Shown: positions 19,168-46,559, counted from the first letter of the stretch. The stretch: 64,000 nucleotides of DNA from Escherichia coli (GCF_001677475.2 NZ_CP015229.1), one strand, 5' to 3'. Numbers and translations: made by a program. The notes: generated by a model from the letters alone, not told the origin.

Positions 19168-19347
19168 CAGCTTCCTTGTGTGACAAATTTCTTAAGCATT
19201 ATCTCTGATGAGGCGGGTAATTCAAAGGGAGTAAGAATGATTGGCTATATAGGGGAAGAGATTCTGGCAACGGAAACTGCCAGTGCTGAATGAAGGTTCC
19301 GGGGCTATGCTTATAGCGATAATCATACTGATGAGAGAGGGAAGGTC

Positions 19348-19578
19348 ATGGATCGGGCGCTACTGGACGGGGGTTATCGCTGTTATACCGGCGAAAAGAT
19401 CGATGTCTATTTCAATACTGCGATATGTCAGCATTCTGGCAATTGCGTACGTGGCAACGGCAAGTTATTTAATCTCAAACGAAAGCCGTGGATCATGCCG
19501 GATGAAGTCGACGTTGCCACTGTGGTTCAAGTGATTGATACGTGCCCGAGCGGCGCGCTGAAATACCGTCATAAATAA
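19348..19578 (+). CDS. yjdI: Small Cys-rich protein YjdI (DUF1271), 76 aa
   Basis: Protein [36 protein letters not shown]... with four Cys; purine-rich SD upstream. Confidence 0.85.
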
Positions 19579-19589
19579 GCGAGGGTAAA

Positions 19590-19862
19590 ATGGAAATACG
19601 CGAAGGCCACAATAAATTTTACATAAATGACGAACAAGGCAAGCAAATCGCTGAAATTGTCTTTGTGCCGACCGGAGAGAATTTAGCGATTATCGAACAT
19701 ACCGATGTCGATGAAAGCCTGAAAGGGCAAGGGATTGGTAAACAGCTGGTTGCGAAAGTCGTGGAAAAAATGCGTCGGGAAAAACGAAAAATTATCCCAC
19801 TATGCCCATTTGCGAAACACGAATTTGATAAAACGCGGGAGTATGATGATATTCGCAGTTGA
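19590..19862 (+). CDS. yjdJ: Small GNAT-like protein YjdJ, 90 aa
   Basis: Protein [40 protein letters not shown]... recognised as YjdJ; GAGGG SD; 11 nt after yjdI. Confidence 0.85.
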
Positions 19863-20088
19863 TGGGAGAGTACAGATTCACGATATTTTTCATGCTCTCC
19901 GCGGTGTGATGCAGGAGAGCATCTGAAGGGTAGGGGGATGCACAAAGAATGGGCAGAGAGCGCGTTTTTTTGTCCCAAGTCATCCCCTTTACTGAGCAAA
20001 AAAAAGAATATCTCCTATATGAGAATCATCAATCGGGGTTAATAAGTTTTGCGTCCCCAGAGCGTTTAAAATTGATAGGAGTCATATT

Positions 20089-20385
20089 ATGGAAGGTAAA
20101 AACAAGTTCAATACTTATGTTGTTTCTTTTGATTATCCATCATCTTATTCCTCAGTGTTCTTAAGGTTAAGATCATTGATGTATGATATGAATTTCTCCT
20201 CTATCGTGGCTGATGAATATGGGATACCACGACAATTGAATGAAAATTCCTTCGCAATAACGACATCGTTAGCCGCAAGTGAAATCGAAGATTTAATCAG
20301 GCTTAAATGCTTAGACTTACCGGATATTGATTTTGACCTCAACATTATGACAGTTGATGACTATTTCCGTCAGTTTTACAAGTAG
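20089..20385 (+). CDS. ghoS: Type V antitoxin GhoS (sequence-specific endoribonuclease), 98 aa
   Basis: Protein MEGKNKFNTYVVSFDYPSSYSSVFLRLRSLMYDMNFSS... recognised as GhoS (YjdK); AGGAG SD upstream. Confidence 0.85.
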   Translation: MEGKNKFNTYVVSFDYPSSYSSVFLRLRSLMYDMNFSSIVADEYGIPRQLNENSFAITTSLAASEIEDLIRLKCLDLPDIDFDLNIMTVDDYFRQFYK

Positions 20386-20412
20386 CCAGGAAGGATAAGA
20401 AGAACATAAAAA

Positions 20413-20586
20413 ATGGCACTATTCTCTAAAATATTAATTTTTTATGTGATTGGTGTGAACATATCCTTTGTCATTATCTGGTTTATCTCACATGAGAAAA
20501 CACATATTCGTTTACTTAGTGCATTCCTGGTCGGAATAACCTGGCCAATGAGTCTGCCTGTGGCATTACTTTTTTCTCTCTTTTAG
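20413..20586 (+). CDS. ghoT: Small membrane toxin GhoT, 57 aa (absent from the ORF track because it is under 60 aa)
   Basis: ATG 20413 to TAG 20584..20586 encodes MALFSKILIFYVIGVNISFVIIWFISHEKTHIRLLSAFLVGITWPMSLPVALLFSLF, hydrophobic, 27 nt downstream of ghoS on the same strand. Confidence 0.8.
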   Translation: MALFSKILIFYVIGVNISFVIIWFISHEKTHIRLLSAFLVGITWPMSLPVALLFSLF

Positions 20587-20704
20587 GAGCTGTAGTTGAG
20601 TGGACCCGCTGGTTATCTTGAAACGAAGCGTCTCTCCTCAAAACTGGATTTGCGGAACGACGAACGAAGCAGTCGCCTGACTGCTTCGTTCATTAAAGTG
20701 AAAT

Positions 20705-44067: not shown

Positions 44068-44385
44068 ATGTCCTGGATTATCTTAGTTATTGCTGGTCTG
44101 CTGGAAGTGGTATGGGCCGTTGGCCTGAAATATACCCACGGCTTTAGTCGTTTGACGCCGAGTGTTATTACTGTGACGGCGATGATTGTCAGTATGGCGC
44201 TACTTGCCTGGGCGATGAAATCGTTACCAGTAGGGACGGCTTATGCCGTGTGGACGGGTATTGGCGCAGTCGGCGCGGCCATCACCGGCATTGTACTGCT
44301 CGGTGAGTCCGCTAACCCGATGCGCCTGGCGAGTCTGGCGTTAATCGTATTGGGGATTATTGGTCTGAAACTCAGCACTCATTAA
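44068..44385 (+). CDS. gdx: Guanidinium exporter Gdx (SugE; SMR family), 105 aa
   Basis: ORF 43918..44385 recognised as SugE/Gdx; the recognised N-terminus [25 protein letters not shown] starts at ATG 44068 with a GGAG SD. Confidence 0.92.
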
Positions 44386-44915
44386 CTACCGGGTTGCTGT
44401 ACCCAAATAAACTTACTGACATCAAACCCTTCCCGGGTCGCGACTGCCAGCATTTCCTGTTTCACTTCGTCAGAAATGGTTGGCGTGCGGGAGAGTATCC
44501 ACAGGTAGTCGCGGTCCGGACCGCAAACCAGCGCATGGCGGTATTCCCGATCGAGCGCAATAACGTTATAACCGCCATAGAAAGGACCAAAGAATGACAC
44601 TTTCAGCGCAGCGCGAGTTGGTGCGCCGGTAAAGTATGCTTTCCCTTCACTCTGTTGCCACATTTCTCTGTCAGGGTTATAGCCTTTATTAATGACATTC
44701 AGGCCGCCGTCATCCCGCAGGCTGTATGTTGCGGTGACTTTTTCCAGTCCACGTTCAAAGCGGTGATCAAAACGGGCAATCTCATACCAGGTACCGAGAT
44801 AGCGTTTAGCATCGAAATTATTCACTACGGTCACGCCACGGGGCGGCGTAGGAGAACTGCAGGCAACGACCAGAAATGCAGCTGTCGCTGCGGCAACGAG
44901 AGGGAGCAGGCGCAT
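44382..44915 (-). CDS. blc: Outer-membrane lipocalin Blc, 177 aa
   Basis: Protein [49 protein letters not shown]... recognised as Blc; convergent with gdx and overlapping it by 4 nt. Confidence 0.92.
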
Positions 44916-44959
44916 AAATGTTTCCTTACTGGTTTTTTTCTAAGTGTAGATGACAGCAA

Positions 44960-45003: not shown

Positions 45004-46559
<1,556 letters not shown>

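Follow-up and report, generated by a model that had tools for sequence, protein, structure and literature searches.

To our knowledge, Elp3, which joins a radical-SAM domain to a GNAT/KAT domain, is the only well-known enzyme in which iron-sulfur (Fe-S) and acetyl-coenzyme A (acetyl-CoA)-binding GNAT domains cooperate. Among the smallest GNATs are the members of COG2388 (Pfam family Acetyltransf_CG), for none of which do we know a physiological substrate; the only activity known to us for the family is a weak histone acetylation by Arabidopsis At1g77540, reportedly described by Tyler and colleagues in 2006, who are said to have assigned a mechanistic role to a His/Cys pair. The Fer4_19 domain is the Fe-S module of the class E flavodiiron protein (FDP) of S. 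wolfei, where it holds a [3Fe-4S] cluster, as seen by electron paramagnetic resonance and resonance Raman spectroscopy, that is unaffected by mutation of the His in the domain's motif (bioRxiv 10.1101/2024.04.03.587993). Here, we analyse the two-gene cassette yjdI-yjdJ of Escherichia coli, which encodes one protein of each of these two families, Fer4_19 and Acetyltransf_CG. It occupies positions 19348-19862 (+) of a 64,000-nucleotide stretch of DNA (GCF_001677475.2 NZ_CP015229.1), the whole of which is referred to below as the window. Comparative sequence analysis strongly supports the view that YjdI and YjdJ are a functional pair.

The cassette comprises yjdI (19348-19578, +), an ATG open reading frame (ORF) of 76 amino acids (aa) annotated in RefSeq as '4Fe-4S mono-cluster protein YjdI', and yjdJ (19590-19862, +), an ATG ORF of 90 aa annotated as 'GNAT family N-acetyltransferase'. 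As read from the sequence, an 11-nt spacer (gcgagggtaaa, 19579-19589, +) separates them, and the yjdJ Shine-Dalgarno sequence GAGGG (19581-19585, +) lies inside it. The RefSeq coding sequences are the same ORFs with the same spacing, in exact agreement with the lengths and the 11-nt distance given in a preliminary description of this DNA. The yjdI-yjdJ stretch was found in 5414 of 5426 complete E. coli genomes, with a coverage of at least 80% in 5320; the best match in an E. coli genome has 99.2% identity. Both are real, annotated core genes of Escherichia, and chance ORFs are ruled out. Neither gene is new: they are named, annotated, assigned to known Pfam families and carried by nearly every E. 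coli genome.

The preliminary description took the tight coupling of the two genes as a sign of a functional pair, and comparison across genomes bears this out. We compared the best 80 species loci, one genome per species, all of them from Enterobacteriaceae (about 20 genera). yjdJ directly follows yjdI in 80 of 80, and the distance from the last sense codon of yjdI to the start of yjdJ is 12-21 nt in 79 of them, which, minus the stop codon, approximates the spacing observed here. Meanwhile the neighbours vary between genera: ghoST adjoins the pair in four of the 80 loci and a dcuS orthologue in five, all in Escherichia, the flanking genes are unrelated in six other genera that we inspected, and no conserved third gene was found near yjdI-yjdJ. 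The context of more distant relatives was obtained for a small sample of 12 exact-protein look-ups in public assemblies (8 YjdI-like, 3 YjdJ-like and 1 fusion). A PF14542 (Acetyltransf_CG) gene touches seven of the eight distant stand-alone Fer4_19 homologues (44-75% identity to YjdI), six times downstream and once upstream; in the upstream case, from a GC-rich lineage, the two genes stand in reverse order with an overlap of 4 nt. In Listeria the yjdI-yjdJ order is kept, with a spacer of 12 nt. Between E. coli and Listeria fleischmannii (locus L099, 3001-3549), YjdI is 75% and YjdJ 47% identical, a gap that may reflect either stronger constraint on the Fe-S subunit than on the enzyme subunit or different transfer histories.

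The two families are also found in single polypeptides. Full-length fusions of Fer4_19 and Acetyltransf_CG number six among representatives at 50% identity and form about 48 distinct clusters at 90% identity, including proteins from Sporosarcina, Psychrobacillus and Paenibacillus genomes. In these natural fusions a complete Fer4_19 domain is N-terminal, followed by a short linker and a complete Acetyltransf_CG domain, and one fusion protein was assembled independently from two samples. The E. coli-like 'fusions' P0107, P0166 and P0204 were discounted as deletion or assembly artefacts. Because the adjacency is kept while the neighbours change, occurs also in reversed order, and is accompanied by many natural fusions, the comparisons argue strongly for a functional pair; fusions together with conserved adjacency are the classical Rosetta-stone signature of a functional link. 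The genes co-occur in other genomes, a point on which the preliminary description had proposed that its idea be judged. It is very improbable, in our estimation, that yjdI and yjdJ are merely co-transcribed neighbours with independent functions. Such independence would agree with the occurrence of each family in other contexts too, and with the lack of a confident interface in an AlphaFold2 (AF2) model of a fusion (predicted template modelling score, pTM, 0.56), but adjacency that survives full neighbour turnover and order reversal, and fusions in many lineages across phyla, argue against it.

YjdI matches Pfam family PF06902, Fer4_19 (formerly DUF1271), along the entire profile (1-64 of 64) with 103.5 bits against a threshold of 24 (E=6e-30). 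The preliminary description saw in it four cysteines arranged like a small metal-binding domain. All four are present, C12 in CYTG, C27 and C33 in CQHSGNC and C66 in CPSG, but the Cys4 site does not survive comparison: Cys12 lies outside the Pfam domain and occurs in 1 of 111 diverse YjdI homologues, the usual residue being Lys, Thr or Ala. The predicted site is instead of the ferredoxin type, with C27, C33 and C66, plus H29. YjdI fits the pattern C-x-H-x3-C-x32-C-P, as C27-Q-H29-SGN-C33, 32 residues and C66-P67 (codons on the + strand: C27, 19426-19428; H29, 19432-19434; C33, 19444-19446; C66, 19543-19545), which is the published Fer4_19 motif (bioRxiv 10.1101/2024.04.03.587993). Two alignments, of 57 and 59 diverse homologues, show C27, C33, C66, P67, W48 and P47 to be invariant or nearly so, and H29 to be kept in at least 90%.

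The position of the second Cys in the ferredoxin motif CxxCxxC...CP is taken in YjdI by Ser30, and the family-profile alignment sets the YjdI motif against CQGHAMC...CP of M. tuberculosis Fdx and CIGCGVC...CP of T. maritima ferredoxin. YjdI does not have the four conserved Cys that define a classical [4Fe-4S] ferredoxin. With Ser30 in place of the second Cys, the cluster to be expected is [3Fe-4S], or else [4Fe-4S] with a fourth ligand other than Cys. The fold prediction points the same way. An AF2 model of YjdI has a mean predicted local distance difference test (pLDDT) score of 91.8, and the top 7 Foldseek matches to it in the PDB are all single-cluster ferredoxins (probability 0.95-1.0, TM 0.53-0.69), albeit with weak E-values of 0.03-0.2; the YjdI family profile reaches the PDB entries 8AMP, 1DWL, 1ROF and 1F2G at E=0.0013-0.05. 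A direct search of the PDB with the YjdI sequence gave nothing significant, the ferredoxins being reached by the family profile and the fold search only. Sequence and model together predict that YjdI is a three-cysteine single-cluster ferredoxin-type Fe-S protein, and a Cys4 mini-domain is excluded. As far as the preprint that cites it relates, spectroscopy of E. coli YjdI is reported in the Bak thesis (cited in bioRxiv 10.1101/2024.04.03.587993).

YjdJ matches PF14542, Acetyltransf_CG (COG2388), over the full profile (1-80 of 80) with 87 bits against a threshold of 30 (E=1e-24); of the broader GNAT profiles it matches no more than the middle (31-91 of 116 in PF00583, for example). The preliminary description was correct in calling YjdJ GNAT-like and short for an acetyltransferase, and both of the profile searches that it suggested, for DUF1271 and for GNATs, returned matches far above the gathering thresholds. 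A crystal structure of YjdJ is already in the PDB (5I0C) and differs from the window protein at one residue; residue 15 is Glu in the window and Lys in 5I0C. The acetyl-CoA-binding fold, whose absence the preliminary description had named as a point that would tell against it, is present in this structure. Within the family, nuclear magnetic resonance structures exist for the S. aureus homologue, 1R57 and, with acetyl-CoA, 2H5M, and CoA is bound in 2IL4. When the GNAT half of a modelled natural fusion is superimposed on 5I0C, the root-mean-square deviation is 0.8 Å (TM 0.97), and the At1g77540 structures compare with the same half at TM 0.79-0.83.

A modelled YjdJ homologue runs strand-strand-strand-helix-strand-helix-helix, so that, compared with the standard GNAT architecture, it appears to be without the alpha1-alpha2 arm and the final strand. 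These data support a description of YjdJ as an unusually short GNAT that retains the acetyl-CoA-binding core (beta4-alpha3-beta5-alpha4). Across 37 diverse Acetyltransf_CG members, H37-T38 and P70-L71-C72-P73-F74 are invariant (codons in yjdJ, + strand: His37, 19698-19700; Cys72, 19803-19805). The profile of these 37 members matches At1g77540, the protein that founded the 'minimal acetyltransferase of COG2388' type, at E=4e-5, and His37 and Cys72 of YjdJ align with its His41 and Cys76. The word 'uncharacterised', which the preliminary description applied to the cassette, holds for its biological function, and full-text literature searches found no paper on the function of the yjdI-yjdJ pair; it does not hold for the proteins, given the YjdJ crystal structure and the spectroscopy that the citing preprint attributes to YjdI.

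We put forward, tentatively and at somewhat less than an even chance for the model as a whole, that YjdI and YjdJ together make up one stress-induced enzyme of two subunits, a Cys/His catalyst that depends on CoA and an Fe-S protein that gates or serves it. In this model, yjdI-yjdJ would be a self-contained bicistronic operon, probably of the general-stress (sigma-S) type, for the two subunits of one enzyme. YjdI would hold its cluster through Cys27, Cys33 and Cys66, with His29 beside the site. YjdJ would be a stripped GNAT, with the acetyl-CoA core and the invariant His37/Cys72 but not the N-terminal helices and the C-terminal strand; since the missing parts form the acceptor site in ordinary GNATs, YjdJ alone could presumably not build one. 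YjdI may then dock on YjdJ at the end to which the Fe-S domain is attached in the fusions, the N-terminal side of the GNAT. From there, two options are conceivable: the Cys/His acyl-transfer chemistry of YjdJ could be made sensitive to the YjdI cluster, to its redox state or its integrity, or the cluster could pass electrons to the Cys/His centre of YjdJ.

Several observations weigh against this two-subunit model. All three YjdJ-family singletons whose context we retrieved (Sphingobacterium, Acinetobacter and Morganella) are without a Fer4_19 neighbour, and the GNAT family is also found in eukaryotes, which means that YjdJ-type enzymes need no Fe-S partner in general. Fer4_19 is fused more often to CDGSH [2Fe-2S] domains (34 of 57 long homologues), in what are known as 'type 7 CISD' proteins, and so frequent a fusion is more in keeping with a generic module for electron transfer than with a dedicated sensor. 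An AF2 prediction for the natural fusion P0251, computed free of cofactors and from a shallow paired/fused alignment of 56 rows, gave confident domains (pLDDT 91.4) with a pTM of 0.56; no fixed interdomain interface was predicted, leaving the proposed docking without structural support. Our literature searches found no experiment showing a YjdI-YjdJ complex or activity. Finally, in a screen of 25 E. coli GNATs, overexpression of YjdJ alone caused no growth inhibition and no new acetyl-lysine bands (PMC6199490).

Because overexpression gave no acetyl-lysine bands, YjdJ on its own probably does not acetylate protein lysines broadly. The same blank screen would be explained by a target as narrow as a single partner, and it is conceivable, though in our view unlikely, that the pair is one of enzyme and substrate, with YjdJ acetylating YjdI at its N-terminus or at a lysine and so tuning cluster stability, potential or choice of partner. 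Stand-alone YjdI homologues carry an adjoining GNAT gene (7 of 8) while the GNAT is often alone, as expected if YjdI depends on YjdJ, and the N-terminal extension specific to YjdI (GYRKY motif) often has a lysine at position 12 (23 of 111). However, YjdI has no invariant lysine, position 12 being Cys in E. coli and Lys, Thr, Ala or Glu elsewhere. Covalent fusion of an enzyme to a stoichiometric substrate in about 48 lineages would also be unusual, and the higher conservation of YjdI than of YjdJ (75% versus 47% between E. coli and Listeria) is not what a simple modification target would lead one to expect.

Another reading of the invariant YjdJ residues departs from acyl transfer altogether. 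Cys72 could form a mixed disulfide or thioester with CoA, and the YjdI cluster could supply or remove electrons, in the manner of the Fe-S clusters of ferredoxin:thioredoxin reductase or heterodisulfide reductase. We regard such a CoA-thiol redox module as improbable, and its service in the redox homeostasis of CoA and protein-CoA (CoAlation) under stress as equally so. It would account for a Cys/His pair that is invariant at the site of the acetyl/thiol group of CoA, and Fer4_19 is an electron-transfer domain in class E FDP (with a measured potential of +70 mV) and in the CDGSH fusions. The sole family activity known to us, weak histone acetylation by At1g77540 (Tyler and colleagues, as cited in PMC11075575), also leans this way, as do neighbours with roles in thiol/electrophile detoxification in several taxa (glyoxalases, frmA/frmB-like alcohol dehydrogenase (ADH) plus esterase, Pirin and flavin reductase). 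Against it, the reading is entirely inferential, we know of no such chemistry for any GNAT, and the evidence from neighbouring genes is anecdotal, coming from 3-4 loci, and is not seen in Enterobacteriaceae. A lone protein combining Fer4_19 with CoA_binding_2, which might seem to link the family to CoA, looks like a fragment or chimera.

A more far-reaching version, to which we give a low probability, is that YjdIJ and its fused relatives constitute an undescribed enzyme class, an Fe-S-dependent CoA-thiol/acyl redox catalyst on a minimal GNAT scaffold. The cluster would then exchange electrons with a CoA-bound Cys72/His37 centre, and the enzyme might act, within the sigma-S/sigma-B general stress response, either as a dedicated reductase of CoA mixed disulfides (deCoAlation) or as an acyl switch gated by the cluster.

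Some details of the distant loci are recorded here in their own right. The neighbours of four distant pairs (L081, L085, L086 and L099) recurrently include genes of an electrophile, thiol-stress or redox kind, namely glyoxalases, a hydrolase of the metallo-beta-lactamase fold, a zinc ADH with an esterase and HxlR (frmAB-like), Pirin with GAPDH, and a flavin reductase, a sample too small for statistics. One Fer4_19 protein is fused to Pirin_C. The metagenomic protein P0325 (128 aa) consists of Fer4_19 and a C-terminal tail matching part of CoA_binding_2 (PF13380, E=8e-5). It may be chimeric or frameshifted, joined to an adjacent gene for a CoA-binding protein, or it may point to a second, rare type of CoA-linked partner; as support for a 'CoA theme' it was rejected, being a single protein with a domain fragment only, and probably a chimera.

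The yjdI-yjdJ cassette is next to ghoST, which raised the question of a GNAT toxin-antitoxin module of the AtaR-AtaT or TacA-TacT kind. The likeness, a small upstream gene, a tightly coupled GNAT downstream and a toxin-antitoxin locus beside it, is superficial. YjdJ has half the size of GNAT toxins (90 versus about 160-180 aa) and is without acceptor-binding parts; YjdI matches Fer4_19 only, with a ferredoxin fold, and has no DNA-binding antitoxin domain (RHH/DUF1778). As a core operon the pair is conserved by vertical descent, and its two proteins are often joined in a single chain; PADLOC has no match for YjdI or YjdJ, and YjdJ is not among the four GNATs whose overexpression stopped growth (PMC6199490). 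We consider a toxin-antitoxin function extremely improbable and reject it as effectively refuted by size, domains, fusions, absence of toxicity and absence of a PADLOC match. The preliminary description was right that ghoST lies beside the pair and that dcuS is divergent from it, but a meaning for these neighbours is not supported: the adjacency to ghoST is limited to Escherichia, as is that to dcuS, and is best regarded as a coincidence.

The stress-induced part of the two-subunit model draws on promoter sequence and published expression data. Among 79 unique upstream regions of yjdI from Enterobacteriaceae, conservation is confined to two blocks, the ribosome-binding site and GCTATGCTTA, the latter conserved at 70-90% or more, and the DNA farther upstream is unrelated. 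In the window this block is a putative sigma-S-type extended -10 element at 19304-19313 (+), 35 nt before the yjdI ATG; the yjdI Shine-Dalgarno sequence GAGGG (19337-19341, +) aligns with the GAGG block conserved in other genera. The element fits KCTAYRCTTAA, which we take to be the extended sigma-S -10 consensus. KCTAYRCTTA has two matches in the 64-kb window against 0.49 expected. The second, at 44941-44950 (-), lies 26 nt upstream of the lipocalin gene blc (44382-44915, -), which is presumably RpoS-dependent and was for that reason taken as an internal positive control for the -10 pattern; the ampC ORF follows (45004-46332, -). A scan for sigma-70-type promoters found none on the + strand at yjdI.

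Both yjdI and yjdJ are induced by the entry of O157:H7 into stationary phase (PMC2241611) and by an acid shift (PMC2270276), and the Listeria homologues lmo0133-lmo0134 form a sigma-B-dependent operon (PMC2813243). The predicted sigma-S-like element agrees with this stationary-phase and acid induction and with the sigma-B dependence in Listeria. We infer a sigma-S promoter for yjdI, and the pair probably belongs to the general stress regulon of both E. coli and Listeria. Downstream of yjdJ, a structured region of 128 nt in the yjdJ-ghoS intergenic sequence (19863-19990, +) is predicted to fold into two stable hairpins (-46 kcal/mol, z = -3.5, with 0 of 200 shuffles as stable). The first has a perfect 9-bp stem (19892-19900/19914-19922) and the second comes with a U-run. 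This region has no Rfam match and a simple terminator scan calls nothing in it; it is probably the 3′ end of the operon.

The gene order in the window is dcuR-dcuS (-), then yjdI, yjdJ, ghoS and ghoT (+), then lysU and dtpC (-). dcuS is divergent upstream of yjdI, and ghoS (PF11080, 98 aa) and ghoT (PF10753, 57 aa), which follow yjdJ at 20089-20586 (+), are both intact. Between ghoT and the convergent lysU lies a perfect 13-bp inverted repeat (20662-20691) that resembles a shared terminator. Searches with Rfam, for repeats and with PADLOC gave nothing relevant within or around the cassette. In B2 and extraintestinal pathogenic strains, a low-GC island with the SPATE autotransporters TagB and TagC is reported to be inserted at the 3′ end of yjdJ, flanked by duplicated yjdJ sequence (PMC6592367). 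In the window this site, at 19862/19863, is empty. The match in the E. coli genome H9 runs no farther than the stop codon of yjdJ, with a second place in another part of the same record, which is consistent with insertion of the island.

Taken together, the analysis sharpens the view of an orphan operon in the best-studied of bacteria and makes that view testable; the system is tractable rather than surprising. The pair is adjacent or fused from Enterobacteriaceae to Bacillota and a GC-rich lineage, and its two proteins should be studied together, the published GNAT screen having used YjdJ alone; the residues singled out are, for YjdI, C27, C33 and C66 and, for YjdJ, H37 and C72. Should the Fe-S partner indeed gate or drive CoA chemistry, it would be a new link of iron-sulfur and redox status to acyl-CoA metabolism, and could inform the function of the eukaryotic NATD1 and At1g77540 relatives. 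Were the pair to represent a class of Fe-S-dependent redox catalysts, it would bring redox chemistry to the GNAT fold for the first time, and a conserved pair of y-genes would gain a function.

Compared with known systems, yjdI-yjdJ resembles the GNAT toxin-antitoxin systems (AtaT, TacT and KacT, with RHH/DUF1778 antitoxins) in having a small upstream gene coupled to a GNAT, but their defining features fail here. Elp3 is likewise an analogy only: YjdI has neither a CxxxCxxC radical-SAM motif (its Cys are at 12, 27, 33 and 66) nor a radical-SAM Pfam match or a TIM-barrel-type fold, YjdJ is a minimal GNAT, and homology is limited to the GNAT superfamily. With the single-cluster ferredoxins (T. 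maritima 1VJW, D. gigas FdII, P. furiosus Fd and M. tuberculosis Fdx, 8AMP), YjdI has in common the predicted fold and the C...C...CP spacing, and in [3Fe-4S] ferredoxins the second Cys of CxxCxxC is replaced, as it is in YjdI. YjdI differs from them in an N-terminal extension of about 12 residues and in the conserved His two residues past the first Cys, its sequence similarity to them is marginal (profile E about 1e-3), and its partner is a GNAT, whereas theirs are a P450 or an oxidoreductase. FDP_E of S. wolfei and the type 7 CDGSH proteins belong to the same Pfam family with the same motif and also carry Fer4_19 as an add-on Fe-S module fused to a partner; that partner is itself a redox centre (diiron/FMN or [2Fe-2S]), while the partner of YjdI has the fold of a CoA-dependent acyltransferase. 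YjdJ, for its part, is a member of COG2388/Acetyltransf_CG, alongside At1g77540 (1XMT, 2IL4), human NATD1 and the S. aureus protein (1R57/2H5M), with the same GNAT core of 90-100 aa and the same invariant His and Cys (H37/C72 corresponding to H41/C76 of At1g77540). What sets it apart is its company: plant, animal and many bacterial members act without an Fe-S partner, whereas the YjdJ subgroup is locked to, or fused with, Fer4_19.

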